This document shows, piece by piece, positions 3,799 through 30,519 of a stretch of DNA of 34,626 nucleotides. The first letter of the stretch is position 1; the number at the start of each line of letters is the position of its first letter. Under the pieces are notes generated by a model. That model did no database searches, was not told where the DNA came from, and was given only the letters and a program-made list of their open reading frames with translations. The position numbers and the translations under genes were made by a program. Source of the DNA: Trueperaceae bacterium (GTDB lineage Bacteria > Deinococcota > Deinococci > Deinococcales > Trueperaceae); the NCBI GenBank assembly GCA_007128755.1, contig SKWV01000455.1, forward strand, positions 1-34,626, in the 5' to 3' direction.

Positions 3799-3804
3799 GT
3801 GCCT

Positions 3805-8601: not shown

Positions 8602-8613
8602 CACCCGCCGAGC

Positions 8614-9472: not shown

Positions 9473-9484
9473 GCAGTTCCTTCC

Positions 9485-9513
9485 TTGACACATCCCGGTC
9501 GGGACCCTATCCT
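9485..9513 (+). promoter_or_regulatory. Sigma-70/SigA-type promoter for the plus-strand operon
   Basis: TTGACA (9485..9490), an exactly 17-nt spacer, then TATCCT (9508..9513). The operator starts 6 nt after the -10. Confidence 0.65.
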
Positions 9514-9541: not shown

Positions 9542-9570
9542 AGCATAGGCAGCGCCCGAGTCGGTGTCAA
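9542..9570 (-). promoter_or_regulatory. Sigma-70/SigA-type promoter for the gntR gene (autoregulated candidate)
   Basis: The minus strand reads TTGACA (9570..9565), a 17-nt spacer, then TATGCT (9547..9542). The predicted transcription start falls inside the operator. Confidence 0.6.
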
Positions 9571-9644
9571 GGGCATTCGAACCCGGTTTCGTCGCGCACC
9601 TTCTGCGCCGACGTCTCGGTACCCGAACAACCCGGAGGTACGTC

Positions 9645-12744: not shown

Positions 12745-12758
12745 GCGTCTCGACCCCC

Positions 12759-14705: not shown

Positions 14706-16212
14706 GTCGGCGTTCGAGCACCTTCGTGCCCGTCTGGCCGACGTGGTCGACATCCGGGGGGCGGAGTACCTCCTCAAGTGGGACCAGTCGACCTACATGC
14801 CACCTGGGGGCGCGCCTGCCAGGGCGCGCCAGCGTGCGCTGCTGAGCCAACTCGCCCACGAGCGGCTCGTCGATCCCGAGGTCGGTCGGCTCCTCGAGCG
14901 GGCCGAGCGGGAGGTCGCGGACGAACCGCCCGACGGTTTCGAGGCGGCCTTCGTGCGGGTGGCGCGACGCGACTTCGAGCGCGAGGCCGCGATCCCCCCC
15001 GCGTTCACACGCGCCTTCGGGGCGCACACGGCCGCCACCTACCAGACGTGGACGGAGGCCCGTCCCGCCGACGACGTGGCGCGCATGCTCCCACTGCTCG
15101 AGCGCACGCTCGACATGAGCCGCACCCTCGCGGGGTTCCAGGGCGCCGCCGAGCACGTCGCCGACCCGCTCATCGCGCGCAGCGACTTCGGCTTCACCGT
15201 GGCCATGCTGCGTCCGCTCTTCGCGCGCCTGCGCGCGACGCTCGTGCCGCTGGCGCGGCGCGTGCAGGCGTGCGAAGCGCCGCGCGACGACTTCGTGCGG
15301 CGCACGTACGCACTCGACGAGCAGTTCGCGTTCGCCGCGGCGCGCGTCGCGGAGTTCGGGTACGACATGCGCCGGGGGCGACTCGATCCGACCCACCACC
15401 CGTTCGCGATCGAGTTCAGCATCGACGACGTCCGCATCACCACGCGCGGGCGGCGCGATTACTTGGTCGAGGCGTTGGCGTGCACGTTCCACGAGAGCGG
15501 CCACGGCATGTACCACCAGGGGCTCGATCCACGCCTCGAAGCGACGCTGCTCGCCGACGGCACCTCGGCCGGCGTGCACGAGAGCCAGTCGCGCATGTGG
15601 GAGAACCGGATCGGCCGCTCGCGAGCGTTCTGGTCCTACGCCTTCGGCCCGCTGCAGGACGCCTTCCCCGACCAGCTCGCGGACGTCGACGCGGAGTCCT
15701 TCTACCGGGCCATGAACGTGGTACGCCCCGGCGTGATCCGGACGCGGGCCGACGAGCTCACCTACGACCTCCACGTCATCGTGCGCTTCGAGCTCGAGCT
15801 CGAGTTGCTCGAGGGCACGTTGGCGGTGGCGGACCTGAGCGAGGCCTGGCACGCGCGCTACGAAGAGGTGGTGGGCGTGCGCGCCGACACCGATCGCGAC
15901 GGCGTCCTGCAGGACGTGCACTGGTTCGCCGGCCCGATCGGCGGCGCCTTCCAGGGGTACACGCTCGGCAACGTCCTCGCGGCGCAGTTCTGGGACGCCG
16001 CCGTTGGTGAGCACCCGGAGGTTCCCGACGACGTGGCGCGCGGGCGGTTCGACACCCTGACGCGCTGGACGCGCGAGCGCATCCATCGGCACGGTCGTGC
16101 AATCGATCCCCTGGCGCTCATCGAGCAGGTGGCTGGCGGCCCCCTCGACACAGGCCCCTACGAGCGCTATCTGCGCGACAAGTACGAGGACCTCTACCCG
16201 AGCGCCGGCTGA
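14698..16212 (+). CDS. M32 carboxypeptidase (carboxypeptidase Taq family)
   Basis: GTG 14698 with AGAGGAGG SD, overlapping the S9 stop by 8 nt. HESGHGMYHQG (HExxH) and IRTRADELTYDLHVIVRFELE match M32 signatures. Confidence 0.85.
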   Translation: MAESAFEHLRARLADVVDIRGAEYLLKWDQSTYMPPGGAPARARQRALLSQLAHERLVDPEVGRLLERAEREVADEPPDGFEAAFVRVARRDFEREAAIPPAFTRAFGAHTAATYQTWTEARPADDVARMLPLLERTLDMSRTLAGFQGAAEHVADPLIARSDFGFTVAMLRPLFARLRATLVPLARRVQACEAPRDDFVRRTYALDEQFAFAAARVAEFGYDMRRGRLDPTHHPFAIEFSIDDVRITTRGRRDYLVEALACTFHESGHGMYHQGLDPRLEATLLADGTSAGVHESQSRMWENRIGRSRAFWSYAFGPLQDAFPDQLADVDAESFYRAMNVVRPGVIRTRADELTYDLHVIVRFELELELLEGTLAVADLSEAWHARYEEVVGVRADTDRDGVLQDVHWFAGPIGGAFQGYTLGNVLAAQFWDAAVGEHPEVPDDVARGRFDTLTRWTRERIHRHGRAIDPLALIEQVAGGPLDTGPYERYLRDKYEDLYPSAG

Positions 16213-16401
16213 GCGCGGTCGCCGGTCCCGCCGTCGATCGCCAGCGAGGCGAGGCGCCCGGAAGACGACCGGCTACCACGTCGCGCGGGCTCGGGGCGGA
16301 GGGCCGACGCGCATGCTGCACCGTGTGGCCCGCACGCTCGGACGTCGGGGCCGGCATGCGACGATGGGTGGCGTGCACGACGAGAGTGGAGGGTCACGAC
16401 G

Positions 16402-17634
16402 GTGAACGTAGACGGAGCGCGCCTGTGGGATCGTATCCAGCGCCTCGGACGCATCGGCGAGGTCGCCGCAGGCGGCATCGTGCGTCCTGCATACGGAGAC
16501 GCGCACGCGGAGGCCGCCGGCAGGGTGGCTGGCTGGATGCGCGAGGCCGGCCTCGAACCGGGCCTCGACGCGACCGGCAACCTGATCGCGGTGCTGCCGG
16601 GCTCGCGCCCCGAACTCGGGGCGATCGGCATTGGCTCCCACCTCGACACCGTCCCGAACGGGGGCGCCTTCGACGGCGCCCTCGGTGTGTTGGCGGCCCT
16701 CGAGGTGGCGCAGGCGCTGCACGAGCGGGGCGTGCGGCCTAAGCGGTCGGTCGCGGTGATCGGCTTCGCGGACGAGGAAGGCAACAACTTCGGCATCGGC
16801 GTGCTCTCGGCGCAGCTCTGGATCGACGAGATCTCGCCGGCCGACTACGGGTCCATCACCGACACGAAGGGCCGCGGGCTCGACGCGTACCTCGCTGCGT
16901 TCGGGGTCGCAGGCGTCCCGCGGGTGGCGCGCCCCGAGCTCGCCGGCTACCTCGAGCTGCATGTCGAACAGGGCCCCGTGCTCGACGCGGACGGCGGACG
17001 CGCCGCCGCGGTGGAGGGGATCGTCGGGATCTCGCGCACGACGGTGCGCTTCATCGGCGAGGCGAACCACGCCGGCACCACCCCCCTCGCCCTGCGCAAG
17101 GACGCGCTCCTCGGCGGCGCCGAGCTGGCACTCGCGGTCCGCCACCTGGGCGAGTCCACCGGCGATCGCGCCGTGACGACCGTCGGCGTGTTCGAGACCC
17201 TCCCGGGCGCCACCAACGTCATCCCCGGCGAGGTCCGCATGCGTGTCGAGATGCGCTCTCCCGACGAGGCCCTGATGGACGATCTGCGCGGACGCGTCGA
17301 GCGCGCCGCATGCGCGGCCGCGGAGCGTCACGGCCTCGAGGTGTCGCTCGAGGCATGGCACCACGCCCCGGCCGTTCCCATGCACCCAGCGGCGCTGCGG
17401 GCCACCCAGGAGGCGCTCGCCGACGCGGGCCTGCCCGTACGCACCATGCCCTCCTGGGCGGGGCACGACGCGAAGGTCCTCGCCCGGCGCATGCCGACCG
17501 GGATGCTCTTCGTGCCCAGCAACGGCGGGATCAGCCACGCACCGGGCGAGGCGACCGACCCGGAGGCGTGCGCGCTCGGCGCGGAAGCGCTCTTCCACGC
17601 CGTCGTCCGGCTGGCCCAGAGCGACGACCTCTGA
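16402..17634 (+). CDS. M20-family amidohydrolase (allantoate amidohydrolase / N-carbamoyl-L-amino-acid hydrolase / beta-ureidopropionase branch)
   Basis: GTG start with GGAGGG SD. GSHLDTVPNGGAFDGALGV and GFADEEG are typical of the AllC/AmaB branch. Confidence 0.8.
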   Translation: MNVDGARLWDRIQRLGRIGEVAAGGIVRPAYGDAHAEAAGRVAGWMREAGLEPGLDATGNLIAVLPGSRPELGAIGIGSHLDTVPNGGAFDGALGVLAALEVAQALHERGVRPKRSVAVIGFADEEGNNFGIGVLSAQLWIDEISPADYGSITDTKGRGLDAYLAAFGVAGVPRVARPELAGYLELHVEQGPVLDADGGRAAAVEGIVGISRTTVRFIGEANHAGTTPLALRKDALLGGAELALAVRHLGESTGDRAVTTVGVFETLPGATNVIPGEVRMRVEMRSPDEALMDDLRGRVERAACAAAERHGLEVSLEAWHHAPAVPMHPAALRATQEALADAGLPVRTMPSWAGHDAKVLARRMPTGMLFVPSNGGISHAPGEATDPEACALGAEALFHAVVRLAQSDDL

Positions 17635-17687
17635 CGCCTGCCGGCGCCCCGGTGTGATTCCCCCGATCCCCCCGCCGAGGAGGCACC

Positions 17688-18743
17688 ATGCCGTACGGCC
17701 GTACGACCTCCGGACCCCACGCCGCGACGGAGCTCGTCGCGCTCTACGCACGGCAGCTCCGCGGCTGCGCGCTCCACGCCGATGAGACCTGCCTCATCGT
17801 CACCGACACCGCCTACGACCCCGTCGCCTCCGCCGCCTGCCTCGGCGCGGCGCTGCAGGTCGGCGCGCGCGCCTTCGTCCTCACCCTCCCCTACGACCGG
17901 CCCCTCCCCGGCGCGTCCCTGGCCGCGGCGATGGCCGACGCCGACCTGATCGTCGGCGTCACCACGCACCTCCTGCACTACGACCCACACGTGCGTGCCG
18001 CCTTGGACGGAGGAGCGCGCGCGCTCCTGGCGGTGCAGCCGACGCACGTCCTGCGTAGGCTCCCGTTCGACCCGGCGGTGATGGCGCGCACGAAGCTCGG
18101 AGCCGAGCGCCTCGCGCGGGCCCGCTCGGTGCGCATCACCTCGCCGGCCGGGACCGATCTCGTCATGGACGTCGCGGAGCGGCCCGCCCTCGCCCACTAC
18201 GGCGTCGCGGACGTCCCGGGCCACTTCGACTTCTGGGGCGGCGCCATGGTCGAGATCGCGCAGCACGAGGGGACGCTCGAGGGGACGCTGGTGCTCACGC
18301 GTGGCGACCAGGTCTTCCACCTCGGGCGCTACGTCGACGACGACGTGCGTATCACCTTCGAGGGAGGGCGCGCCGTGGCGATCGAGGGTGGGCTCGACGC
18401 CCTCCTCCTACGTCGCCACCTCGCCTCGTACGGCGACCCCAACGCCTTCCTGGGGGGCCACATCGCCTGGGGGACGGACCACCGGGCGCTCTGGACGGCG
18501 CCGCTCGTCCAGTTCCCGGAGGCGGGCGCCGGCAACGCCGACAGTGAGGGTGTGCTCGGCAGCGTGCAGGTCCAGCTCGGGTCGAACGACGACCAGTACT
18601 TCCGGGGACGGATCAGCAGCCGGGCGCACATCGGGCTCTGCACCCTCGGCAGCAGCCTCGCGCTCGACGGCGAGGTCGTGATCGACGCGGGCACGTTCGT
18701 GAGCTCGCTCGCCGCGTGCCAACCGGACGACGCCCCCGCCTGA
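17688..18743 (+). CDS. M29 aminopeptidase-like / NicX-like protein (function uncertain)
   Basis: 351 aa with GAGGAGG SD. The length and general pattern recall the aminopeptidase T/S (M29) fold and its approximately 350-aa NicX-type relatives. This assignment is from memory only. Confidence 0.55.
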   Translation: MPYGRTTSGPHAATELVALYARQLRGCALHADETCLIVTDTAYDPVASAACLGAALQVGARAFVLTLPYDRPLPGASLAAAMADADLIVGVTTHLLHYDPHVRAALDGGARALLAVQPTHVLRRLPFDPAVMARTKLGAERLARARSVRITSPAGTDLVMDVAERPALAHYGVADVPGHFDFWGGAMVEIAQHEGTLEGTLVLTRGDQVFHLGRYVDDDVRITFEGGRAVAIEGGLDALLLRRHLASYGDPNAFLGGHIAWGTDHRALWTAPLVQFPEAGAGNADSEGVLGSVQVQLGSNDDQYFRGRISSRAHIGLCTLGSSLALDGEVVIDAGTFVSSLAACQPDDAPA

Positions 18744-18812: not shown

Positions 18813-20498
18813 TCAGGCGGTCAGTTCGACGTCCTGCGCGTCGCGCCCGGCGCGTTCGGACAGGGCGCTCACCGTCACGCGGGCGCCCGCGGGGCCGCGC
18901 ACGAGCCACTCGACGATCTTCGTCGTCGGCGACCAGGTGGGCCCCCAGGGAGACCAGGGGAAGGGCCGCTCGTTGCGGCCCGCGAGGTGGCCGACGTCGA
19001 CCTCGCGCGGGTTCATCACCAGTTCGGCGTCGCCCGGCTCGAGCGCGACCCGCACCGTCTTGGCCACGCCGCGACCGATCGCCACGTCGGTCAGGTTGGT
19101 CGGCAGGTAGCCGTGGTTGGCCACGACGGCGCGCACGCGGTGCAGGTCGCTCCCGAGCGCCTCGGTCTCGACGCGCTCCACGCGCACGCGGGGCGCGGCC
19201 GCGGCGTGCTCGAGGTTGAAGAGCACGTTGTCGTGGCAGATCTTCTCGAGCAGCGCGGGCGGCGGGTTGCGGTAGGTCCAGATGTAGACCATGCCGCCGA
19301 TCTCGACGCTTCCGAGCTGTGGGTGGTCGAAGGCCTTCCAGGGGCGCACCCCGTGCTCCCCGAGGTGCTCCTGTACCCACTCGAACACCTTGAGCTGAGC
19401 CTCCTCGGTGCGCGGGTGGAGGTTGTAGTAGGCGGTCTTCTCGACCCCCGCCTCGGTCTCGACGTCCCAGACCTCGGTGGCGAAGGAGGGGATGCCCATC
19501 TTCTCGTAGGTCCAGTCCATCAGCCCGCCGCGCCGCGGCTTCGACTTGTCGGGGGTGAACTCCTCGTAGATCGAGATGGTCGGGTAGCCCGTGAGGGCGG
19601 TGCCGACCTTGCCGAGCGCCGTGTAGAGGCCGAGGTCCTTGGCCGACATGGCGCTGTCGGGGAGCGTCATCGACGGGCGCAGGATGATGCCGCCGTGCGT
19701 GTGGTACGCGTTCATGCCCGCGATGTTCGGGTGGTCGAGGATGAACCGCGCGATCGCGGCCGCCTCGGGCTCCGAGAGCGGCGCCTCGCCGGCTCCGTAC
19801 TCGTCGGCGTCCCAGTTGGCGGGGAAGTTGCGGTTGAGGTTCCCGTCGAAGGGCTTGTCGATGCGCACGTGCGCGCCGTCGAAGTCCTCGATGAAGCCCT
19901 CGGGGTAGAGGCGGTAGTACTCGCCGCCGTACTCGCCGGGCTCGCGCTGCACCATGATCCGCTCGTCGAGCGTACTCTTCTTCCACTCGCCGAGCGGGTC
20001 GCGCACGCGCATCGAGACGATGTAGCCGTCACCGTCGACGTCCTCGGTCTTGAGGCCGCCGAGGCGGTCCTGGCCGGGGGCGAAGCGGCCGTTGCCGCAC
20101 CAGAGGTAGTAGGGCGGCTTGAGCGAGGCCTCGGCGCCATCGGGGTTGATGCGCGGCACGATGTAGAACACCTGCTCGTCGACGAGGCGCGTGACGCTCT
20201 CGTCGCGGCCGTAGCCGCTCAGCAGGTGGTGGATGGCGTAGAGGGCCACGGCCGAGGTCGCGTGCTCCTCGGCGTGGATCTGCGCGTCGAGGTAGTAGCC
20301 GGGCTTGTGCTCACCCGGTCCGGTCGCGCGGTTGGTGATCTCCATGACCCAGACGTCGCGGTCGCCGAAGCTCTTCCCCAGGGAGCGCAGGGTGGCGAGC
20401 TCCGGATGGTCGGCTGCCAGGGCGTGGAGGCGCTCGGTCAGCTCGTCGTAGTCGTAGTAGCGATCGAAGCGGACGTCGGTGGGAGCGGCGACGCTCAC
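18813..20498 (-). CDS. M14 family zinc carboxypeptidase with extra C-terminal domain
   Basis: GTG 20498 overlaps the upstream stop as GTGA. The track start at 20951 lies inside the Ldh_2 gene. Motifs FDRYYDYDELT, HAEEHATS (HxxE), NRNFP and AYHTHGG. 561 aa. Confidence 0.8.
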   Translation of the reverse strand: MSVAAPTDVRFDRYYDYDELTERLHALAADHPELATLRSLGKSFGDRDVWVMEITNRATGPGEHKPGYYLDAQIHAEEHATSAVALYAIHHLLSGYGRDESVTRLVDEQVFYIVPRINPDGAEASLKPPYYLWCGNGRFAPGQDRLGGLKTEDVDGDGYIVSMRVRDPLGEWKKSTLDERIMVQREPGEYGGEYYRLYPEGFIEDFDGAHVRIDKPFDGNLNRNFPANWDADEYGAGEAPLSEPEAAAIARFILDHPNIAGMNAYHTHGGIILRPSMTLPDSAMSAKDLGLYTALGKVGTALTGYPTISIYEEFTPDKSKPRRGGLMDWTYEKMGIPSFATEVWDVETEAGVEKTAYYNLHPRTEEAQLKVFEWVQEHLGEHGVRPWKAFDHPQLGSVEIGGMVYIWTYRNPPPALLEKICHDNVLFNLEHAAAAPRVRVERVETEALGSDLHRVRAVVANHGYLPTNLTDVAIGRGVAKTVRVALEPGDAELVMNPREVDVGHLAGRNERPFPWSPWGPTWSPTTKIVEWLVRGPAGARVTVSALSERAGRDAQDVELTA

Positions 20499-21553
20499 GC
20501 GCGCCCCCCCGCACGCAGCGCGGACGCGTCGACGCCGAGGTCGGCGCCGAGGCGCACGAGGTCGTCGACCTCGCGCTGCGGCAGCGGCACGCCGTCGGTC
20601 CGCTTCGCACGTTCGCGTCGATGCTCGAGCTCGCCGGGGACGAGCACCTCGTCGAAGCCGGGCCGCAGCTCGCTCGCCTTGACCATGGCGATGAACGCCT
20701 GCATCCGCTCGTGGAAGGTATCGATCGGCATGAACCAGCCGACGTCGTACGCCACGAACGTGTGCGACACGTCGAGCTTCGCGGGGTCGCTGTAGGGCGT
20801 GGTCCCGAAGCCGCCCCCGGAGAGGACGCCCGTGAGCACGTCCGTGAAGAACGAGAGCCCGACGCCCTTGTACTGCCCGATGCCGAGCAGCGCGCCCGCC
20901 ATGGCCGCGGTCGGGTCGTCGGTCTCGTGACCGTCGGGCGTGAGCGCCCAATCGCGCGGCATGCTCTGCCCGCGGTCGGCGAGGAAGCGCATCATGCCCT
21001 TGCCGGCGGTCGTGAGGGCGATGTCGAGCACCACCGGGAAGTCACCGCCGGTGGGCGCGGCGATCCCCCAGGGGTTGGTGCCGACGACCGGCGTGCGGCC
21101 GCCCCAGGCGGCCATCTCGGGGCCCGCGTTCGTGAACGCGAGGCCGATGTGGCCGTGCGCGAGCGCGGCGCGCGCATGCACCGACGAGGAGCCGTAGTGG
21201 GTGCTGCCGCGCACGACGACGGTCCCGACGCCGCAGGCGGCGGCCTTCTCGCTCGCGAGGTCCATCGCGCGGCGGCCGATCACCGAGCCGAGGCCGTTGT
21301 GGGCGTCGACGAGCGCCAGCGCCGGGCTCTCCTTGACGATCTCGAACGGCGCGGCGAGGTTCACGCGGCCCTGCGCGATCCTGTCGCGGTAAGCCACGAG
21401 CCGGCGGATGCCCTGCCCCTGTCCGGGGTGGTAGCGCAGCTCGCTCTGCATGAGCGCGTCCGCGCAGATGCGCGCGTCACCGCTCGTGAGGCCCATCGCC
21501 TCGAAGCAGGCGACGCCGAAGCGCTCGAGCGCCTCCGCGTCGACCCGCGGCAT
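20495..21553 (-). CDS. Ldh_2 family (malate/L-lactate dehydrogenase 2 family) oxidoreductase: ureidoglycolate dehydrogenase / cyclic imine (pyrroline- or piperideine-2-carboxylate) reductase type
   Basis: The N-terminus MPRVDAEALERFGVACFEAMGL aligns by eye with E. coli AllD MKISRETLHQLIENKLCQAGL. Also TNPWGIAAP and GQYKGVGLSFF. ATG 21553 has a GAGG SD. An alternative start GTG 21598 would give a GTGA overlap with the upstream stop. Confidence 0.8.
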   Translation of the reverse strand: MPRVDAEALERFGVACFEAMGLTSGDARICADALMQSELRYHPGQGQGIRRLVAYRDRIAQGRVNLAAPFEIVKESPALALVDAHNGLGSVIGRRAMDLASEKAAACGVGTVVVRGSTHYGSSSVHARAALAHGHIGLAFTNAGPEMAAWGGRTPVVGTNPWGIAAPTGGDFPVVLDIALTTAGKGMMRFLADRGQSMPRDWALTPDGHETDDPTAAMAGALLGIGQYKGVGLSFFTDVLTGVLSGGGFGTTPYSDPAKLDVSHTFVAYDVGWFMPIDTFHERMQAFIAMVKASELRPGFDEVLVPGELEHRRERAKRTDGVPLPQREVDDLVRLGADLGVDASALRAGGRA

Positions 21554-21594
21554 GTCCGCCTCGGCGCCCATGCCCTGCGTGGGGAGGGCCGTCG

Positions 21595-22470
21595 TCACGC
21601 GACCACGTCGAACAGCGTCGACAGGTTGGTGCCGGGCGTGTGCACGGGCGCGAGGCCGCCGTCGTGCGAGGTCATGAGCAGGGTGAGTCCGGGCCCGTAG
21701 CCGGGGCGGGGGCTGTCGCCCTGGCCGACGACGCCGATGCCGACCGCGCCGCGGAAGTAGCCGTGGGAGTAGCGGCTGTCGAAGTCCTGCAGCGCCACGA
21801 GATCGCCGAGCCTGAGGTCGGTGAGGCCGGCTTCGGCCAGGGCGTCCTTGTCTACCGTCTGCACGTGCAGCGAGCCGCCGTCGCTCACCAGGCCCGCGCC
21901 GGCGCCGAGCAGGTGCGACGGGACCGTCGCGACGACCTTCACCTTGAGCTTGCCGCCTTCGTCGACGCCGTCGACGATCCGCTCGAGCAGCTCGGGCGCG
22001 CAGCCCTTGAGCTTGACGCTCGGGTGCTCGGGGATCTCGAGGCCGACGCCGGCGGCGCGGATGAGCACCTTGTCGCCGATCGCCATGTTCTCGCGGTCCG
22101 CCTTCGAGAAGTGCACGATCACGTGCTCCGAGAAGCGACCCGACTTGCCCGTCACCATGCCGCGGGCACCCTTGGCGGCGCCGGACATGACCTTCGCCTC
22201 GTTGCCGACGCACGCGAGGACGTTGAGGCCCTGGTTGGCGCCGGCGTCCTTGAGGTGGATGCTGACGCTCGGGTGGATGGTGTCGGCCAGCCAGCCGTAG
22301 GCGGAGTCGCCGATGGAGACGTTGTAGACGATGCTGCCGTGCGTCGGGTAGAGGAACGCCTTGCCGTCGGCGTCGAGGCGGTAGGGCTCGGCGGGGAGGC
22401 CGGGGAGGGTGGGGCTGGCGATGAGCCCCATGACGGAGACGTGGACGAGCTTGTCCTTGTTGGTGCGCAT
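21595..22470 (-). CDS. Uncharacterised protein, paralogue B of a tandem pair (possibly DUF4438-like)
   Basis: ATG 22470 shares 1 nt with the upstream stop (TGATG). 291 aa, MRTNKDKLVHV... It has clear blockwise similarity to 22470..23333. No catalytic motif that I recognise. Confidence 0.7.
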   Translation of the reverse strand: MRTNKDKLVHVSVMGLIASPTLPGLPAEPYRLDADGKAFLYPTHGSIVYNVSIGDSAYGWLADTIHPSVSIHLKDAGANQGLNVLACVGNEAKVMSGAAKGARGMVTGKSGRFSEHVIVHFSKADRENMAIGDKVLIRAAGVGLEIPEHPSVKLKGCAPELLERIVDGVDEGGKLKVKVVATVPSHLLGAGAGLVSDGGSLHVQTVDKDALAEAGLTDLRLGDLVALQDFDSRYSHGYFRGAVGIGVVGQGDSPRPGYGPGLTLLMTSHDGGLAPVHTPGTNLSTLFDVVA

Positions 22471-23333
22471 CAGAGGGTCTCCCGGATCTTCAGGTACCGA
22501 GCGATGTTGGCCTGCGGGTCGATGACCCACTCGATCTCGGCGTCGGTGGCGGCCATCAGGGTGAGGATGCCGGGGCCGTGCCCGGTCATGACCGAGTCCC
22601 CGTGGATGCACAGGGCGATGGCGACGTAGCCCTTGCGGTAGGAGCGGCCGAAGTGGTGGTCGGCGTGGTGGATGGCCACCACGTCGCCGAGGCGCAACGC
22701 GTCGATGCCGAGCTCCTGCATCAGACGGCGGTCACCGGAGGTGATGTCCTGGTCGACGTACTCGGCGTTCAGCTCGGCGCCCGAGGCCATCACGCGCACG
22801 GGCAGCTCCATCGCGACCGGCACGCGGAGCTTGCCCTCGGCGGTCGTCTCGAGGCCCATGGCGTGCAGCAGCCGGGGGCTCATCTTCTTGAGTTCGACGC
22901 CCGGGTGGTCGAGCAGTGCCAGGCCCCGCCCGAAGGCGCGGATCTGGATGGTGTCCTCGACGCAGAGCTGCTCGTGGACCTCGGGATCGAAGTCGACGAG
23001 GATGCGCGCGTGCTCGCCGATCACGACGCCCTCGGCGCCGGCCGCCTCGCCGCTCGTCACCACGGCGCGGTTGCCCATGCACGTGAGGTAGTGGAGCGCG
23101 TGGTGGATGCCGCCGTCGTCGTGGTCGATCGACGCGCCGGGCTCGACGTGGTCGCCCTGCCAGCCGAAGGCGGGGTCGCCGACGCGGACGTTGTAGACGT
23201 AGCCGAACATGCCGGGACGGACGACGGAGAGCCCGTCGTTGTCGGGGATGAACGGCCCGCGCCGGAACGCGGGTGCGCTGATGGAGCCGGCGATGGCGAG
23301 CTCGACGAGTCGATCTTCGTTGGTCCTGATCAC
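22470..23333 (-). CDS. Uncharacterised protein, paralogue A of a tandem pair (possibly DUF4438-like)
   Basis: GTG 23333 with GAGAGG SD. 287 aa, MIRTNEDRLVEL... Shared blocks with paralogue B are YVYNVRVGDPAFGW / IVYNVSIGDSAYGW, LTCMGNRAVVTSGEAAGAEG / LACVGNEAKVMSGAAKGARG, LRLGDVVAI / LRLGDLVAL and GHGPGILTLMA / GYGPGLTLLMT. Confidence 0.7.
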   Translation of the reverse strand: MIRTNEDRLVELAIAGSISAPAFRRGPFIPDNDGLSVVRPGMFGYVYNVRVGDPAFGWQGDHVEPGASIDHDDGGIHHALHYLTCMGNRAVVTSGEAAGAEGVVIGEHARILVDFDPEVHEQLCVEDTIQIRAFGRGLALLDHPGVELKKMSPRLLHAMGLETTAEGKLRVPVAMELPVRVMASGAELNAEYVDQDITSGDRRLMQELGIDALRLGDVVAIHHADHHFGRSYRKGYVAIALCIHGDSVMTGHGPGILTLMAATDAEIEWVIDPQANIARYLKIRETL

Positions 23334-23367
23334 GTCTGCACCTCTCGGATGTCGATGGTCGTCGTCT

Positions 23368-24543
23368 TCACGCGCGCGCCGCGGCTTCCGCGGCGTAGCG
23401 CTTCACGACCGGGGTCATGCGCTCGACGGCCTCGCGCAGCACGTCGGTGGGCTGCAGGGTCGTGATGCGGAGGTAGTCGCTCCAGCGTTCGCCGAACCCG
23501 GTGCCGGGGAACACGAGCACCCGCGCCTCCTTGAGCAGGAGGTAAGAGAGCTCGAGCGAACGGAGGCCGGTCGAGGAGCTCTTCGCCCAGAAGAAGAAAC
23601 CGCCGCGCGGGTCCGTGTACTCCAGGCCCATGTCGGTGAGGCCCTTGGCGAGCAGGTCTCGGCGCTCTCCGTAGATCACCTTGAAGTCCTCGATGCAGGC
23701 GTCGTCGGCCTCGGCGGCCGCCAGCGCGGCGGCCTGGCTGACGTTGGCGACCGGGCCGGTGGTGGCCCCCTTGATGGCCGTCATGCCGAGGATCGCGTTC
23801 TGCTCCGCGATGACGTACCCGACGCGCCATCCCGTCATCGCCCACGCCTTGGAGAAGCCCGAGAGCGTGATGGTGTGGCGCTCCATGCCCGGGAGCGACC
23901 CGATCGAGACGTGCTCGTGTGGGGGCCAGACGAACTTGCCGTAGATCTCGTCGGAGATCACCACGAAGTCGTGCTTCTTGGCGAGCGCGGCGATCTTCTC
24001 CGCCTGCTCGCGCGAGATGATCCCGCCCGTCGGGTTCGAGGGGGTCACGAGGAGCAGCGCCTTGGTCTTGGGCGTGATGAGCGACTCGATCGCCTCGGCG
24101 CGCAGATCGAACGCGTCCTCGGGGTGCGTCGGCACGGTGACGCTGACGCCCCCGGCGTGCTCGATCGCCTGATCGTAGCTGGTGTAGCGCGGGTCGGGGA
24201 CGAGGATCTCGTCACCCGGGTCGAGGAGCGCGGACATCACCAGGAAGAGCCCCTCCTGGCCGCCGGTCGTCACGAGCACCTGCTCCGCGCCGACGTCGAG
24301 GCCGTGATCCGTGCGGGCGCGCTTCGCGATGGCGGCGCGCAGCGCCGGCATCCCCGCCACGGGCTGCAGGGGCTGCACGCCCTGCGCGAGCGCCTGCTTG
24401 GCCGCGACCACCACGTGATCGGGCGTGGCGAGGTCGGGATCCCCCCGACCGAGCGCGATGGCGTCGGGGATCGTCTTGGCGAGGTCCATCAGCGCGTAGC
24501 GCAACTTGGCGCCGTCGAGGTTGCGAAGTTCGTCGAGGGTCAC
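23368..24543 (-). CDS. Class I/II PLP aminotransferase
   Basis: GTG 24543 (GGAGGAG SD) overlaps the upstream stop as GTGA. 391 aa with TPSNPTGG, SDEIYGKF and SGFSKAWAMTGWRVGY (PLP lysine present). Confidence 0.85.
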   Translation of the reverse strand: MTLDELRNLDGAKLRYALMDLAKTIPDAIALGRGDPDLATPDHVVVAAKQALAQGVQPLQPVAGMPALRAAIAKRARTDHGLDVGAEQVLVTTGGQEGLFLVMSALLDPGDEILVPDPRYTSYDQAIEHAGGVSVTVPTHPEDAFDLRAEAIESLITPKTKALLLVTPSNPTGGIISREQAEKIAALAKKHDFVVISDEIYGKFVWPPHEHVSIGSLPGMERHTITLSGFSKAWAMTGWRVGYVIAEQNAILGMTAIKGATTGPVANVSQAAALAAAEADDACIEDFKVIYGERRDLLAKGLTDMGLEYTDPRGGFFFWAKSSSTGLRSLELSYLLLKEARVLVFPGTGFGERWSDYLRITTLQPTDVLREAVERMTPVVKRYAAEAAARA

Positions 24544-25262
24544 GCGTGCTCCTCCATGAGCGCCAGCGCGCCCCATTGCGAGAGGTTGGTGGTGCAGAGC
24601 GTGAGCGACTGCTTGAAGTCGCGCAACGGTCCGGCGGTGGCGGCGGGCGCCGCGAGGTAGCCGACGCGCCACGCCTCGAGGCCCTGGCCTGCGCCGATGC
24701 CGCCGACCGTCACGGTCGCGTCGGCGAGGCCGGCGGAGGCGGGGTGGAAGCCGCTCTCCTCGGCGGCCTCGAAGACGACGGCCCAACCCTCGTCGGCCGC
24801 GCGCGCCAGCCAGGGATCGCGCGTCTCGGCGGGCGTGTCGGAGGTGAGGTAGACGAGCGCGGGGCCGTGGGCGTCGGCATCGGGCCCGACGAGGCGCACG
24901 TCGCGCACGATGCAGGCCGCGGCGACGCGCTCCGGGTGCGAGAGCGCGACGACGGTGCCCGAGCCCGCAGGGACGAGCTGCTGGATCGCGACGAAGCGGG
25001 CCTCGACGACGCCGCAGGTGATCACGACGCCCTTGCCGGCGTCGACCTCGACACCGTGACGGGTCCGCAGGGCGTCGGCCACCGCTTGCCGCAGTGGGAG
25101 GATCCCGGGGCGGTCGGTGTAGTGCGTCTCACCGCGGTCGAGTGCCGCGATCGACGCATCGCGCGCCGAGGCCGGCACGGTGGCCTCGGCTCCGGCGGCA
25201 CCGTCGCCGGCCAAGCCCTGCAGGAGCGCGACGCGTGCGGCGAGCGGTACGGCGAGCGCCAT
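24540..25262 (-). CDS. Truncated, lysine-less aminotransferase homologue (probable pseudoenzyme or accessory subunit)
   Basis: ATG 25262 (AGGGGA SD) shares 1 nt with the upstream stop (TGATG). 240 aa. It aligns with the N-terminal two thirds of class-I aminotransferases (HYTDRPGILPLRQAVADAL...VVITCG). The NPTG box is degenerate (SDTPAET). The S-x-S-K box reads GGIGAGQGLEAWRVGYL with no Lys. The C-terminal small domain is missing. Confidence 0.7.
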   Translation of the reverse strand: MALAVPLAARVALLQGLAGDGAAGAEATVPASARDASIAALDRGETHYTDRPGILPLRQAVADALRTRHGVEVDAGKGVVITCGVVEARFVAIQQLVPAGSGTVVALSHPERVAAACIVRDVRLVGPDADAHGPALVYLTSDTPAETRDPWLARAADEGWAVVFEAAEESGFHPASAGLADATVTVGGIGAGQGLEAWRVGYLAAPAATAGPLRDFKQSLTLCTTNLSQWGALALMEEHA

Positions 25263-25732
25263 CAGATCCCCTGCACGGCGTACTGGGCGAGCTGTTCGGG
25301 CGTGTAGACCTGCATGAACTCGATCTCGATGCCGCCGACGTCGTCCTCGAGGAACGCGACCCAACCCTCGGGGTGCACGTGGCTCCCGGTGATCTTGCAG
25401 GCCGAGCACTCCTTCAGCTTGGCCCCGCGCGCCTGCGCGGTCTCGAGGGCCGCATCGATGTCGTCGACGGCGTAGCAGATGTGGTGGAGCCCTTCGCCGC
25501 CGCGGTCGGCGATCCAGGCGGCGAACCGACCGTCGGGATCCATCGACTGGGAGATCTGGTACTCGATGCCGCCCAAGTCGAAGATCGCGACGCGGTTGCG
25601 CGACTTCGCGAACTCCGTGACGGTGACCTCCTCCGGGACTCCGAGCAGGCGCTTGTAGTTCGCCAGCGTGGTGTCGACGTCGTGGACGGCGAACGACATG
25701 TGCTTGACCTGCGTGACGTGGATGTCCTTCAT
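25262..25732 (-). CDS. VOC (glyoxalase / bleomycin-resistance / methylmalonyl-CoA-epimerase-like) family protein
   Basis: ATG 25732 with AAAGGAA SD, 156 aa. The pattern VKHMSFAVHDVD...GLHHICYAVDDIDAALE...GIEIEF is a typical paired beta-alpha-beta-beta-beta VOC pattern. The track start at 25978 is over-extended. Confidence 0.75.
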   Translation of the reverse strand: MKDIHVTQVKHMSFAVHDVDTTLANYKRLLGVPEEVTVTEFAKSRNRVAIFDLGGIEYQISQSMDPDGRFAAWIADRGGEGLHHICYAVDDIDAALETAQARGAKLKECSACKITGSHVHPEGWVAFLEDDVGGIEIEFMQVYTPEQLAQYAVQGI

Positions 25733-25931: not shown

Positions 25932-26831
25932 TCAGACCTGACCGCGGAGGCGTGGGTCGAGCGCGTCGCGGAGTCCATCGCCGATGAGGTTGACCGCGAG
26001 GACCGTCACCATGATGGCGAGGCCCGGGAACGTGGCCACCCACCAGGAGCGCCGGAGCACGCCGCGGCCGTCGCTGATGAGCAGTCCCCACTCCGGCGTG
26101 GGGGGCGCCGCGCCGAGCCCGAGGAACGAGAGGGCAGCCACGGACAGCACCGCGCTGCCGAGCCCCAGCGTCGCGAGCACCAGCACGGGAGCGAAGACGT
26201 TGGGGAGGATGTGCCGGCCCATCACGGCGCCGTCGCCGGCCCCGGCCGCACGAGCCGCCTCGACGTACGGCAGCTGCTTGGCCGAGAGCACCGAGGCACG
26301 AACCACCCGCGCGTACTGCGGCATGGTCGAGAAACCGACCGCGATCATCACGTTCACGAGGCTGGGCCCGAGCGCGAAGACGATGGTGATGGCGAGCAGG
26401 ATGCCCGGCATCGCCAAGACGAAGTCCATGAACCGCATCAGGGCGTTGTCGATCACGCCGCCATAGAACCCGGAGATCAGGCCGAACACCGTGCCCAGGA
26501 TGGAGCCGATGGCGACGGCGACGACCCCGACCAGGAGCGAGATGCGGCCGCCGTAGACGACCCGCGTGAAGATGTCGCGCCCGTTCCGATCGGTGCCGAA
26601 CCAGTGCTCGGCGGTCGGCGGCGAGAAGCGTGCGGCGTAGTTCGGCTCGACCGGATCGAAGCGCGTGACGTACGGCGCGAAGATGACCAGGAGGATCAGG
26701 ATGGCGAAGAGCACGGTTCCGACCACGGCTCCGCGGTTGCGGCGGAACTCGCGCAGGAAGATCTGGGTGGGCGTACGCTCGTGCCCGATGGTTCGGTGTG
26801 CCGCGGGGGCGGCGGAGGCGGCTTCAGCCAT
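25932..26831 (-). CDS. ABC transporter permease (DppC/OppC type)
   Basis: 299 aa with multiple hydrophobic spans. WFGTDRNGRDIFTRVVYG (OppC N-terminal motif) and an EAA-like loop (AARAAGAGDGAVMGRHILPN). Confidence 0.85.
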   Translation of the reverse strand: MAEAASAAPAAHRTIGHERTPTQIFLREFRRNRGAVVGTVLFAILILLVIFAPYVTRFDPVEPNYAARFSPPTAEHWFGTDRNGRDIFTRVVYGGRISLLVGVVAVAIGSILGTVFGLISGFYGGVIDNALMRFMDFVLAMPGILLAITIVFALGPSLVNVMIAVGFSTMPQYARVVRASVLSAKQLPYVEAARAAGAGDGAVMGRHILPNVFAPVLVLATLGLGSAVLSVAALSFLGLGAAPPTPEWGLLISDGRGVLRRSWWVATFPGLAIMVTVLAVNLIGDGLRDALDPRLRGQV

Positions 26832-26864: not shown

Positions 26865-27788
26865 TCATGCGTAGCTGATTCGAGGATCGAGGATCCCGTA
26901 GGTGAGATCGACGATCAGGTTGACGAGGACGAACAGGGCCGCGGTCACGATGATGCCGCCCTGTACGAGGTAGAAGTCGTGGGCGAAGATCGCCTTGATG
27001 ATCAGGTTGCCGATCCCCTGGCGCGCGAACACGATCTCGATGATCACCGAGCCTCCGAGCAGGAAGCCGAAGTTGATGCCGATGACGGTCACGATGGGGA
27101 TGAGCGCGTTCTTGAGCGCGTGCCGGTTGATCACGCTGGGCTCGGCGACACCCTTGGCCCGGGCGGTCCGAACGAAGTCCTGCCCCAGGACCTCGAGCAT
27201 GGTCGACCGGAAGAGCCGCGCGAGCAGACCGGCGAACGACAGCCCGAGGGCGAAGGCCGGAAGGACGACGTGCCATAGGGTGTCGGAGCCCTGGACGGGG
27301 AACCAGCCGAGGTTGAGGGAGAACACGAAGATAAAGATCAGGCCGAGCCAGAAGTTGGGCATCGACAGGGCCAGCAGTGAGATGAGCATGCTGATGCTGT
27401 CCCACCAGGTGTTGCGCATGACCGCCGCGGTGATCCCGAAGAACGCTCCGAAGAGGACGCCCACGATGGTCGCGGCCACCGCGAGCTCGAGGGTCTTGGG
27501 GAGCTGTTCGAAGATCTGCGGCAGCACCGGTCGCCGGCTGAAGAGCGAGGTGCCGAAGTCACCCTGCACCGCGTTGGCCAGGAAGCGCCCGTACTGGACG
27601 AGGATGGGATCGGTCAGCCCCAGCTGCTCCCGCAGCTGCTGCTCCTCGACCGCCGAGGCGCCGAACTCCGAGAGCATGATGGTGACGGCGTCCCCGGGCA
27701 GCAGGTGGAGCATGAAGAAGACCAGGCTGCTGACGCCGAACACGACCACCACGGCGGCGAGCGTGCGGTTGACGACGTACCCGATCAT
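26865..27788 (-). CDS. ABC transporter permease (DppB/OppB type)
   Basis: 307 aa. The N-terminus MIGYVVNRTLAAVVVVFGVSSLVFFMLHLLPGD and the segment FVRTARAKGVAEPSVINRHALKNA are typical of OppB/DppB permeases. Confidence 0.85.
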   Translation of the reverse strand: MIGYVVNRTLAAVVVVFGVSSLVFFMLHLLPGDAVTIMLSEFGASAVEEQQLREQLGLTDPILVQYGRFLANAVQGDFGTSLFSRRPVLPQIFEQLPKTLELAVAATIVGVLFGAFFGITAAVMRNTWWDSISMLISLLALSMPNFWLGLIFIFVFSLNLGWFPVQGSDTLWHVVLPAFALGLSFAGLLARLFRSTMLEVLGQDFVRTARAKGVAEPSVINRHALKNALIPIVTVIGINFGFLLGGSVIIEIVFARQGIGNLIIKAIFAHDFYLVQGGIIVTAALFVLVNLIVDLTYGILDPRISYA

Positions 27789-27891: not shown

Positions 27892-29493
27892 TCAGTCGTG
27901 CTCGTGCAGGTTCAACAGGTAGCCGAACCAGCCGGTCGCGTCCGAAGGGGTCCAGCCGTCGACGCCCTGGCGGGCCGCGACGAGGATCTTGACGTTGTAG
28001 AGCGGCACGATGGTCGCGTCGCCCATCAGGATGTGCTGGAGCTCGGAGAAGAGCTCGGCACGGACGTCCTGGTCGGTCTCGGCGCGGGCCTCCGCGAAGA
28101 TCTCGGTGACGCGCTCGTTGCAGTAGTGGGCGAAGTTCCAGCCCCCACCGATGTTCTCGCACCCGTAGCGACCCTGCAGCGCCGAGGGATCCACGCCGCC
28201 CCACTGGCTCCACACGACGTTGTGCAGCCCCTGCTGGGCGGTGCCCTGCTGGGCGGGGTTGTCCTGGACCAGCACGTTGGTATGGATGCCGACGCGGCGC
28301 CACTCGGCCTCGAGGACCTCGGCCTGGTTGGCTACGCCGCTCAGGGTGAGGTACTCGATCGACAGGCGCTCGCCGTTGCGCTCGCGGAACCCGGTCGACG
28401 CGTTGAGGGTCCAGCCGGCCTCATCGAGCAGTTCACCGGCGCGCTCGGGATCGAACGGGTACATCTCGCCCGCCTCGGGGTCGTAGCCGAAGGAGAAGCG
28501 GGACATCACGCCGCCCGAGGCGTCGTAGATACCCTCGAACACGATGTCGCGCACGAGTTCCGAGTCGGTCGCGTGGATGAGTGCGCGGCGCACGAGCACG
28601 TCGTCCGTGGGCGACTTCGTCACGTTGATGAAGAGGCCCGCGGGCGGGTAGCCGAGGCGGTCGTAGCCGTGGGTCTCGAAGTTCGCGTCGGCCTCGAAGT
28701 CGAGCCAGTCGAAGGCGTCGAGGTAGAGGGCCATGCCGATCTCGCCACGCTCGAGCGCGGCGGCGCGGGTGGCGTCCTCCTCGATGAAGCGGAAGGTGAT
28801 GGTGTCGAAGTAGGGCGCGGTCCGGGCCTGGAAGTCGGCGGCCCAGGCATAGTCGGGGTTCTTCTCCACGACGACCGACTGGCCGGGCGTGTAGGAGACG
28901 AAGCGGTACGGGCCGGTGCCCACGGGGTTCCAGCTGATCTCGTCGCCGAGGCGTTCGACGGCGGTCGGCGACATCATGCCCATGCCGTAGGTCGACAGGG
29001 CGCTCGGGAGCAGGCCGTAGGGCGAGGTGAACTCGAGCTCGAGGGTGTGCGAACCGACGGCGCGCGCGGCGGTGAACGGCCCGATCTCGAAGCGGGCGTA
29101 CTGGGACTCGGTAGCCGGGTCGACCATGCGCTCGAAGTTGAACGCGGCGGCCTCGGCGTCGAACGGCGTGCCGTCGTGGAACACGACGTCGTCGCGCAGC
29201 TCGAAGGTCCACACCAGGCCGTCGTCGGAGACGGACCAGGAGGTGGCGAGGTTCGGGTAGAGCTCACCGGTGTTGCCGTCGCGCTGGATCAGGTTGTCGA
29301 AGATCCCGAAGAACAGCGGTGCGTCGAAGGCGGCGGAGGACTTGTGCGGATCGAGGACCGTGAACTCCAGTCTGGATCCGATCGTGAGCGAGCTCTGTGC
29401 CTGCGCGACGCTGAGTGTGAGCGCGAGCGTCGACAGGAGCATGACGGCGGCCATGAGAACTGGCCACCTCAGGCGGTGCGGGGTCGTGGTCAT
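27892..29493 (-). CDS. ABC transporter substrate-binding protein, family 5 (peptide/nickel/opine type)
   Basis: ATG 29493 with GGAAGGAG SD. The track start at 29652 runs into the gntR gene. Signal peptide MTTTPHRLRWPVLMAAVMLLSTLALTLSVAQAQ. 533 aa, with the family-5 SBP pattern (YRFVSYTPGQSVVVEKNPDYW). Confidence 0.85.
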   Translation of the reverse strand: MTTTPHRLRWPVLMAAVMLLSTLALTLSVAQAQSSLTIGSRLEFTVLDPHKSSAAFDAPLFFGIFDNLIQRDGNTGELYPNLATSWSVSDDGLVWTFELRDDVVFHDGTPFDAEAAAFNFERMVDPATESQYARFEIGPFTAARAVGSHTLELEFTSPYGLLPSALSTYGMGMMSPTAVERLGDEISWNPVGTGPYRFVSYTPGQSVVVEKNPDYAWAADFQARTAPYFDTITFRFIEEDATRAAALERGEIGMALYLDAFDWLDFEADANFETHGYDRLGYPPAGLFINVTKSPTDDVLVRRALIHATDSELVRDIVFEGIYDASGGVMSRFSFGYDPEAGEMYPFDPERAGELLDEAGWTLNASTGFRERNGERLSIEYLTLSGVANQAEVLEAEWRRVGIHTNVLVQDNPAQQGTAQQGLHNVVWSQWGGVDPSALQGRYGCENIGGGWNFAHYCNERVTEIFAEARAETDQDVRAELFSELQHILMGDATIVPLYNVKILVAARQGVDGWTPSDATGWFGYLLNLHEHD

Positions 29494-29648
29494 GAACGTG
29501 CTCCTTCCTTCTCGGACGAGGGATGGCGGGCGGGTCTGGCCCACCGAACAGCTTGGGCGACGGGCCCGCGCCTCGGCGCTGCGACGCAGCGTGAGGACGC
29601 GCTCGAGGGGCGTGGGCGACGCCGTTCGTGCTTCGGGTGCGAGACCCG

Positions 29649-30383
29649 TCACGAGGACGACGCCGTGGTGGGCGGCGCAGGCTCGTCATCGCCGATCGAG
29701 GAGACGACGACGAGCGTGTCGAGGTGAGCGATGACGTTCTCGATGTGACGGCATGCGGCGCGTTCGGCGGCGTCGGCATCGCGCGCCACGAGCGCCTCGT
29801 AGATCCTGCGGTGCTCACCAGCCACGTCGGCCGCCGTCCGAGGCGCGGGGCCGTCGGAGCCGGTGCGCAACTGACGGATGGTGCTGTGACGGTAGACCGC
29901 GACGATGTCCGCGGCGATCTGCGCGAAGCGGACCAGGTGGTGGTTGTCGCTCATCTCGTAGATGCGGGCATGGAAGCTCAGGTCGGCGACCCAGAGTGCC
30001 TGAGTCTGATCGACCGATTCGCCGTCTCCGCCGTCCCACACCGCTAGGTCGTCGGCGAGCGCCTCGAGATCGCGCACGGTGGCGTGCTCGGCTGCGAGAC
30101 GCGTCGCCAGCCCGTCGAACGCAGCCCGGCAGCGATAGAGGTCGCGCACGTCCTTGATCGCCAGCCGGGGTACGGCGAGTCGTCCCTGCCGCCCTTCGAC
30201 GAGGCCACGCTCCTTGAGCATGATGAGCGCGTTGCTGACCGGTGTGCGGCTGACGGCGAGCTGGGTCGCCAGCTCGGACTCGTTGATGATCTGCCCAGGC
30301 CGATAGAAGCCGCCGACGATGCGGTCGCGTACGAAGGCGTACACCTGATCTCCGAGACTGGGTCCTCGTGCGACGACGGTCAT
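29649..30383 (-). CDS. GntR-family transcriptional regulator, FadR-like (second copy in the window)
   Basis: ATG 30383 with GAAAGG SD, 244 aa. HTH segment ESELATQLAVSRTPVSNALIMLKERGLVE, followed by a helical effector domain. Confidence 0.8.
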   Translation of the reverse strand: MTVVARGPSLGDQVYAFVRDRIVGGFYRPGQIINESELATQLAVSRTPVSNALIMLKERGLVEGRQGRLAVPRLAIKDVRDLYRCRAAFDGLATRLAAEHATVRDLEALADDLAVWDGGDGESVDQTQALWVADLSFHARIYEMSDNHHLVRFAQIAADIVAVYRHSTIRQLRTGSDGPAPRTAADVAGEHRRIYEALVARDADAAERAACRHIENVIAHLDTLVVVSSIGDDEPAPPTTASSS

Positions 30384-30519
30384 TGGCACCTTTCCGCTCC
30401 TCCGGCATGCGGCACGCTGCATGCAGGTGCCGTTGCTCGGCAGTGTACGGAGCACGCTGGCGCCCACCGAGTCGTTCCCGGCGCCGGAGTACACAGGGGC
30501 TCTCGGCGTGCCGCGCGCC

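Follow-up and report, generated by a model that had tools for sequence, protein, structure and literature searches.

Tandem DUF4438 paralogues in a conserved Ldh_2-associated gene cluster as a candidate two-subunit enzyme

A crystal structure of the DUF4438 family has been available since 2008, but the family is still without a function. The structure is that of TM1086 from Thermotoga maritima (PDB entries 3DCL, with 5 chains, and 3N99, with 30 chains), whose PDB molecule name gives no function. In this study, we focus on two adjacent genes, here called A and B, which encode paralogous DUF4438 proteins on the minus strand of a 34,626-nt stretch of Trueperaceae DNA with 70% G+C (contig SKWV01000455.1; "the window" hereafter means this whole stretch), and which offer the best handle on the family so far. 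In the reading that comparative sequence evidence favours most, A and B would together make up a single obligate hetero-oligomeric enzyme with the DUF4438 fold, in which A is the catalytic subunit and which acts in a conserved gene cluster; we give this reading an even chance of being correct.

Several described systems provide a frame for such a pair. The alpha and beta rings of the 20S proteasome are a hetero-oligomer of active and degenerate paralogues. In the cysteate/sulfolactate route, an aminotransferase is followed by an Ldh_2-family sulfolactate dehydrogenase (ComC) and then by the two-subunit lyase SuyAB. The hyu and ureide-type clusters combine a hydantoinase, an M20 carbamoylase, a racemase, an AllD-type Ldh_2 protein, and a PF04115 lyase.

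The A/B pair and its family

Gene A (22470..23333, minus strand, GTG start, 287 aa) is the canonical and presumed catalytic copy, and gene B (21595..22470, minus strand, ATG start, 291 aa) is its remodelled paralogue. The two proteins align over their whole length with 35% identity in 289 columns (BLASTP, E = 5e-57), a degree of homology far beyond chance. At their junction, ...ACC CTC TGATG CGC..., the TGA of A and the ATG of B have 1 nt in common, and a GAGAGG motif is located 8 nt before the GTG start of A. Real genes in the window are recognisable by a G+C content at third codon positions (GC3) of ~0.9, a signature that is present in A (0.96) and B (0.90) and absent from the plus-strand open reading frames (ORFs) lying across them (21640..22629 and 22578..23465). 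The original prediction had described two homologous ORFs that are joined by a 1-nt stop/start overlap and flanked by an aminotransferase and an Ldh_2 oxidoreductase. All of this is borne out, with a class-I/II aminotransferase upstream (23368..24543) and Ldh_2 downstream (20495..21571), and every sequence block cited there is found in A and B.

The same prediction had pointed to a resemblance to DUF4438 and TM1086, and this assignment proved correct in Pfam HMM searches, PDB matches, and Foldseek comparisons. When scanned against Pfam-A (hmmscan), both proteins matched the full profile of the N-terminal domain PF14505 (A, E = 1.5e-45, 154.6 bits; B, E = 4e-49, 166.2 bits) as well as the C-terminal domain PF20999 (A, E = 6.5e-42, 142.8 bits; B, E = 7e-34, 116.8 bits), far above the gathering scores of 24.9 and 27 bits, respectively, and nothing further was matched at E <= 1. 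TM1086, the sole solved relative, is matched by A with E = 1e-58 in the PDB sequence search. The AlphaFold2 (AF2) models of both proteins have the fold of the TM1086 crystal structure: the model of A (predicted local distance difference test score, pLDDT, 79.8) superposes on 3DCL with a TM-score of 0.80-0.83 (Foldseek, E = 2e-30), and that of B (pLDDT 87.5) with a TM-score of 0.87-0.91 and a root-mean-square deviation of 2.5 Å (E = 7e-35). For both models, TM1086 was the only significant Foldseek match in the PDB, no other fold scoring better than E = 0.02; the weaker matches are small beta-barrels (L35Ae, the F1-ATPase N-terminal domain, and KOW) with E > 0.02, so that no functional analogy can be drawn from them.

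The statement that no function is established for DUF4438 still holds in Pfam, NCBIfam release 20, PDB names, and the full-text literature. NCBIfam release 20 (June 2026) has no DUF4438 model and returned nothing for A and one meaningless match for B, and full-text searches with the family name, TM1086, and the Pfam, InterPro, and PDB identifiers found no paper on DUF4438/TM1086 function; what they returned were C. elegans alleles, imaging acronyms, and a single paper on crystallisation methods. Neither A nor B matched a family with demonstrated function in Pfam, NCBIfam, the PDB sequence search, or Foldseek, and the source names in the match lists are all "DUF4438 domain-containing protein" or "hypothetical protein". 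The family is small: a profile search of 1.84 billion proteins gave 917 representatives at 50% identity, and a search of a plasmid collection found no homologue.

Division of conserved residues and coupling of the two genes

An alignment of 120 A-type, 119 B-type, and 120 TM1086-type sequences allowed 137 positions, each at least 90% conserved in the TM1086 clade, to be classed by their fate in the two paralogues. Both A and B keep 48 of them, 11 are kept in A only, 12 in B only, and 23 in neither, and the remaining 43 are intermediate. The A-only set holds eight polar residues, namely H62, E64, H108, S184, D194, D196, H244, and H252 (four His, two Asp, and one Glu among them), which are almost invariant in the sampled members of both the A and the TM1086 clades; at these positions, B has C/T64, H66, S110, A190, S200, H202, Q250, and Y258 (B numbering). 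The B-only set includes S12, R31, H116, and K134, all lost from A, and the H116-V117 pair, which is kept in B and in the TM1086 clade, is deleted in A. The universal C87-x-G-N90 motif (B numbering) is kept in B.

From 80 representatives, we defined a canonical constellation, which is our own and not a curated one, consisting of D61, H62, E64, S68, C85, N88, H108, D127, S184, D194, D196, D201, D217, D225, H244, D246, and H252 (A numbering). It is complete in A, whereas B lacks H62, E64, H108, S184, D194, D196, H244, and H252 and keeps the rest; by this tally, A is a canonical member of the family, and B, which belongs to it by homology and fold, is degenerate. Most of the 80 full-length representatives taken at 50% identity have the pattern DH.E ... 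C..N ... H ... D.D ... H ... H, and several independent degenerate, B-like DUF4438 clades among them keep little beyond C85/N88. The original prediction recognised no catalytic motif in the pair, a statement that the comparison does not bear out: A has a His/Glu/Asp constellation that is almost invariant in the A and TM1086 clades and lost in B. No prior description of candidate active-site residues in DUF4438 was found. In the monomer model of A, the eight polar A-only residues, H108 excepted, are located in reduced-confidence segments (means of 60-80 over 10-residue blocks, versus 83-97 in the core), and the deepest trough of confidence, below 50 at residues 22-63, contains the family-wide YNV.VGD..GW..D motif.

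The division of residues goes along with a tight genetic linkage. A scan for relatives of A, with one genome per species, yielded at least 580 stretches, and the best 80 loci, which were examined taxonomically, come from Trueperaceae, Anaerolineae/Aggregatilineales/Phototrophicaceae, Rhodobacterales, Rhizobiales, Acidobacteriaceae, Gemmatimonadota, and a Pleurocapsa metagenome-assembled genome (MAG). The A-B pair accordingly spans at least six groups, i.e., Deinococcota, Chloroflexota, Alphaproteobacteria, Acidobacteriota, Gemmatimonadota, and a cyanobacterial MAG. Gene neighbours were counted within 10 kb of the pair in 82 A/B loci, some counts being taken from the 59 full-length ones. A is directly followed by B in 81 of the 82 loci; the other, L009, was rejected as a case of A without B because a masked run of N, an assembly gap, interrupts its B gene. 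Stop and start codons overlap (ATGA or TGATG) at 54 of the 81 A-B junctions, and the gap is at most 9 nt in nearly all others. In one long-read MAG (L006), B stops after 223 aa, which looks like a frameshift or an assembly artefact.

Both genes are maintained. In Trueperaceae, the dN/dS ratio of A ranges from 0.03 to 0.40 and that of B from 0.15 to 0.43. Over 65 loci, the mean divergence of Ldh_2 is the same as that of A and B (0.32-0.34), the distance matrices of the three are correlated (r = 0.90-0.93), and the A and B subfamilies retain 65-70% identity between phyla. Purifying selection and a divergence rate equal to that of Ldh_2 indicate that neither A nor B is decaying, and the decay of one copy, a possibility raised in the original prediction, is ruled out by dN/dS values below 0.45 in both genes.

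Additional evidence comes from a clade in which two DUF4438 units are fused. The top match of the profile search, P0361 (636 aa), consists of a signal peptide, a degenerate DUF4438 unit, and then a canonical unit with the motifs DHVEP, CIGN, GRH, DYD, IHG, and GHGPG. Its clade of ~620-660-aa proteins (L090-L134) has 45 metagenomic relatives with 41-68%, mostly 57-68%, identity, many of them on short contigs and partly covered; one example is located at 8001-9974 of L115, and a split form with abutting genes for 311 aa and 283 aa is found in L131 (8007-9794). The degenerate unit of the fused clade lacks the universal Cys. The clade probably represents an independent duplication, and the independent linkage of a degenerate and a canonical unit in a fusion supports such pairs acting as one entity. 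A further protein, P0363, was considered as a natural A-B fusion and rejected, as it looks like a frameshifted read-through across neighbouring genes, in which an A-type C-terminal part is joined to a B-type N-terminal part via an out-of-frame stretch.

The heteromeric complex suggested in the original prediction thereby gains comparative backing: the conserved tandem order, the translational coupling through overlapping codons, the complementary retention of residues, and the fused clade together argue that A and B would form an obligate heteromer. In the scenario that we propose, a homomeric TM1086-like ancestor, whose site may have been completed by the neighbouring subunit, was duplicated, and the copies would then have split the ancestral residues between them. 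A would keep D61-H62-x-E64, H108, S184, D194-x-D196, H244, and H252 as the probable catalytic site, and we suspect that its canonical constellation binds a divalent metal. B would either complete this site across the subunit interface or serve as a structural or regulatory partner, and the full ancestral residue set would be restored by the A/B assembly only. Such an enzyme would need no organic cofactor, and its substrate would be a small-molecule intermediate of the conserved catabolic cluster; the residues, like the secreted fused form, would allow for hydrolysis, elimination, or isomerisation, in each case without an organic cofactor.

The conserved cluster and the weighing of readings

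The constant companions of A/B are Ldh_2 (71 of the 82 loci), an aminotransferase (70), and a VOC protein (62), and a truncated aminotransferase paralogue (sAT) lies beside the aminotransferase in 48-64 loci. Homologues of the regulator, binding protein, and permeases of the window are found near the pair in 33-47 of the 82 loci. Furthermore, the 59 full-length loci include two GFO_IDH_MocA oxidoreductases (in 35-40), an NAD-epimerase (39), a ~470-500-aa protein without a Pfam family (39; encoded at 9564-11069 in the window), a hydantoinase-like amidohydrolase (38), and an M24/creatinase-like protein (29). The order of the genes varies: it is A-B-VOC-Ldh_2-sAT-AT in Chloroflexota, where AT denotes the class-I aminotransferase, and in Rhodobacterales, A-B-Ldh_2 stands apart from the aminotransferase and VOC genes, which are on the opposite strand. 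In a Methylobacterium MAG (L028, 2550-10056), A/B adjoin genes for an HyuA/HyuB-type ATP-dependent hydantoinase/oxoprolinase, a GntR/FCD regulator, an EamA exporter, and an amidohydrolase, and Ldh_2, VOC, and class-I aminotransferase genes were not detected within 10 kb of the pair.

These data give partial support to the earlier idea that A/B carry out a central step that is missing between the aminotransferase and Ldh_2. The co-localisation on which it was built is strongly conserved, but the gene order is not, and some loci have no Ldh_2 or aminotransferase within 10 kb. As gene order is variable between phyla, the position of A/B carries no information on the order of steps; what is conserved is membership in the cluster, not a place between two enzymes. 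In the pathway that we envisage, the cluster, tied to a GntR/FCD regulator gene, would import peptide-like or cyclic-amide compounds via a Dpp-type ABC transporter, peptidases and hydantoinase-like amidohydrolases would hydrolyse them, and the products would then pass through the class-I aminotransferase, the VOC isomerase-like protein, and the Ldh_2 2-hydroxy/2-oxo-acid dehydrogenase. A more far-reaching version holds that A/B would found a new heteromeric, cofactor-less, and possibly metal-dependent enzyme class on a fold without a characterised relative, catalysing a reaction unassigned to any gene in a conserved cluster of ~15-25 genes for a peptide-linked or cyclic-amide substrate, a cluster that by the same reading would occur across at least six phyla, in several hundred bacterial species or more. 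We hold this version only tentatively, at somewhat less than an even chance; if true, it would assign a function to DUF4438 as a whole and bring to light a pathway that has no annotation at present.

Several observations weigh against the two-subunit enzyme. The replacements H66, S110, S200, H202, Q250, and Y258 are almost fully conserved in the B clade, and such fixed replacements fit a second, different site as well as a non-catalytic role. The absence of Ldh_2 or the aminotransferase from the vicinity of some A/B loci has been mentioned. Single-copy TM1086-type genes (Thermotoga, Caloranaerobacter, Zhenhengia, Clostridium, and Lutispora) have no recurrent neighbour, and the neighbours of the fused clade (methyltransferases, an MFS transporter, and GNAT) have no conserved theme, so that context gives the general chemistry of the family no support. 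Moreover, we infer metal binding from residue types alone, and the pentameric asymmetric unit of TM1086 (5 and 30 chains) is no proof of the dimer-based assembly that A/B pairing needs.

The alternatives differ in how they account for the same observations. A and B could form a new ring-shaped peptidase or amidase that acts directly on imported peptides or cyclic amides instead of on an intermediate of the aminotransferase and Ldh_2, which we consider unlikely. Such a hydrolase would suit the wealth of peptidases (M14, M20, M24, M32, S9, and M55), amidase, and hydantoinase-like amidohydrolases in the window and related loci, and a site that is rich in His, Asp, and Glu and has a universal Cys would be in keeping with a metallo- or cysteine hydrolase. 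The TM1086 crystals with 5 and 30 chains are compatible with rings, the signal peptide of the fused clade implies a chemistry independent of cytoplasmic cofactors, and the Methylobacterium pair stands beside HyuA/HyuB and an amidohydrolase, with Ldh_2 and the class-I aminotransferase undetected within 10 kb. However, the peptidase complement differs between loci, whereas Ldh_2, the aminotransferase, and VOC are constant, and no peptidase or amidohydrolase family or fold was matched in Pfam, NCBIfam, the PDB sequence search, or Foldseek.

The fixed residues of the B clade would be explained most directly if A and B were two separate homo-oligomeric enzymes that catalyse distinct reactions, in sequence or in parallel, within one pathway, with a new active site acquired by B, and this would also agree with B evolving as slowly as A and with the existence of several distinct degenerate clades. 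We nevertheless find it rather improbable. The A-B order is strict, with overlapping stop and start codons, and the loss is complementary, A having lost the H-V insertion as well as R, K, and S, all of which are retained in B and in the TM1086 clade; in addition, fusion proteins couple a degenerate to a canonical unit, and, the assembly gap in L009 aside, none of the sampled loci has just one of the two genes. A non-enzymatic scaffold, ligand-binding, or regulatory protein accompanying Ldh_2 would be in line with the failure to find a cofactor motif or a fold relative of known chemistry (Pfam, NCBIfam, and Foldseek) and with small beta-barrel domains that have KOW-like features, a fold frequent in binding modules, but it is very improbable given ~17 polar positions, including four His and eight Asp/Glu, that are conserved across clades in a 290-aa protein, as is typical of a catalytic or metal site, and given the place of the genes within tightly coupled metabolic operons.

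Other identities were rejected. A and B lack the domains that define Ldh_2 partners of the SuyAB, AcnX, and proline/hydantoin racemase types (SAF/altronate-dehydratase-type, DUF521/DUF126, Pro_racemase, and Asp_Glu_race; Pfam hmmscan), and a pyruvoyl self-processing enzyme was discarded since both models align over their whole length to single TM1086 chains, which argues against self-cleavage. SuyAB-like desulfonation, AcnX/proline-racemase-type hydroxyproline routes, and hydantoin racemase, as well as muropeptide, Amadori, or opine catabolism, are unsupported beyond a resemblance of context.

The operon in the window and its comparison with known systems

The operon around A/B reads, on the minus strand, GntR/FCD, SBP_bac_5, two permeases, VOC, sAT, AT, A, B, Ldh_2, and M14. 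The GntR/FCD regulator (29649-30575), the SBP_bac_5 binding protein (27892-29652), and two Dpp/Opp-type permeases (26865-27788 and 25932-26831) were identified with Pfam. They are followed by a methylmalonyl-CoA-epimerase-like protein of the VOC/Glyoxalase_4 type (25262..25732, 156 aa; PF13669, E = 6e-16), which scores 61 bits with TIGR03081, under the cut-off of 115, and has methylmalonyl-CoA epimerases as PDB matches at about E = 1e-9. AT (23368..24543; PF00155, E = 3e-71) lies 34 nt upstream of A, has the motif SGFSKAW with the lysine that binds pyridoxal phosphate (PLP), and finds its best PDB matches in the Pyrococcus aromatic aminotransferase and the Thermus aspartate aminotransferase. 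Its truncated paralogue sAT (24540..25262, 240 aa) matches PF00155 weakly, at N-terminal profile positions 18-96 only, and is without the PLP lysine, its GGIGAGQG being aligned to SGFSKAW; it is translationally coupled through a GTGA junction with AT and a TGATG junction with the upstream VOC gene. AT and sAT are a second pair of live and degenerate paralogues in the operon of A/B, which raises the possibility that such pairing belongs to the design of this pathway.

Downstream of B, at a distance of 23 nt, is the gene for the Ldh_2-family NAD(P) oxidoreductase (20495..21571; PF02615, E = 3e-101), with an alternative ATG at 21553. Sulfolactate and type-2 malate dehydrogenases are the nearest relatives of this protein, and the piperideine-2-carboxylate reductase type is distant from it; all scores are below the NCBIfam equivalog cut-offs. 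The GTG start of the subsequent gene, which encodes a carboxypeptidase T/A-like peptidase M14 (18813..20498; PF00246, E = 2e-39; PDB matches to carboxypeptidase T), overlaps the Ldh_2 stop (GTGA). A promoter and terminator scan of 17.5-31.5 kb gave no signal above chance.

Elsewhere in the window (1-9500 and 11188-18743) are a polysaccharide-deacetylase-like gene fragment (10-807) and genes for an amidase (2125-3798) and a D-aminopeptidase of family M55 (3805-4647). Two amidohydrolases, one Xaa-Pro-dipeptidase-like (4677-5882) and the other hydantoinase/allantoinase-like (5879-7348), are encoded there too, as is a second aminotransferase (7345-8727, minus strand). A second GntR regulator, a second SBP_bac_5 protein with more Dpp components, and peptidases S9, M32, and M20 are also encoded. 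This hydrolase island suggests catabolism of D-residue peptides or cyclic amides. For both aminotransferases (23368-24543 and 7345-8727), the best NCBIfam match is the guanitoxin cyclodehydratase GntC, with 311 and 303 bits, which is under the cut-off of 415, barely ahead of generic aspartate aminotransferase models, and probably not meaningful. The conserved protein of ~500 aa encoded at 9564-11069 (plus strand) has no Pfam match above cut-off (weak GHL10) and no NCBIfam or PDB sequence match; its 70% identity to the copy in Rhodophyticola (Alphaproteobacteria) is a cross-phylum conservation above that of A. An ORF of 351 aa with a coding-like GC3 of 0.94 (17688-18743, plus strand) has no Pfam or NCBIfam match, and its homologues were found in only 4 of the 82 related loci.

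Although the DUF4438 family and its fold were already known, no prior description was found of the paired, subfunctionalised A/B architecture, nor of its close association, in hundreds of species, with a cluster centred on Ldh_2. The A/B clade ties the family to a metabolic neighbourhood of Ldh_2, aminotransferase, VOC, amidohydrolases, transporter, and regulator, and is present in Rhodobacterales and Rhizobiales that have been cultured and in Chloroflexota and Trueperaceae that have not. The sorting of residues into canonical and degenerate ones names targets for mutation and predicts an obligate heteromer, which would explain a possible failure of single-subunit expression. Knowledge of the substrate would allow ~900 sequence clusters to be annotated, together with a catabolic gene cluster that is widespread in soil and marine bacteria.

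Compared with TM1086, A and B share the two-domain architecture and the fold, and A has all eight clade-invariant polar residues. Unlike the TM1086-type genes of Thermotogae and Clostridia, which are single-copy, presumably homomeric, and without conserved metabolic neighbours, A/B are duplicated and reside in a catabolic operon. The fused P0361 clade resembles A/B in presenting one degenerate and one canonical unit as a single entity, but its units are covalently joined in the order degenerate-canonical, the reverse of A/B, and it has a signal peptide and no Ldh_2, aminotransferase, or VOC neighbours. The likeness to the 20S proteasome lies in adjacent genes for paralogues of the same fold, one with the catalytic residues and the other with assembly or auxiliary features; there is no sequence or fold relationship between the two systems.

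With the cysteate/sulfolactate route, the cluster shares the joint encoding of a class-I aminotransferase, Ldh_2, and a cofactor-less two-subunit enzyme, and the Ldh_2 protein of the window scores best with the sulfolactate dehydrogenase model, albeit with 198 bits against a cut-off of 500. In contrast to that route, A/B consist of DUF4438 only, without SuyAB domains, and no Pfam match to sulfite exporter or sulfite oxidase families was found among the window ORFs scanned. The hyu and ureide-type clusters are similar in their hydantoinase/allantoinase-like amidohydrolase, M20, and Ldh_2 proteins, in the PF04115 protein present at many A/B loci, and in the HyuA/HyuB genes that adjoin A/B in Methylobacterium. 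They differ in that all these matches score below equivalog cut-offs and that A/B are unrelated to the Asp/Glu/hydantoin racemase family, while the Dpp-type transporter and the many peptidases of the A/B cluster point to peptides.

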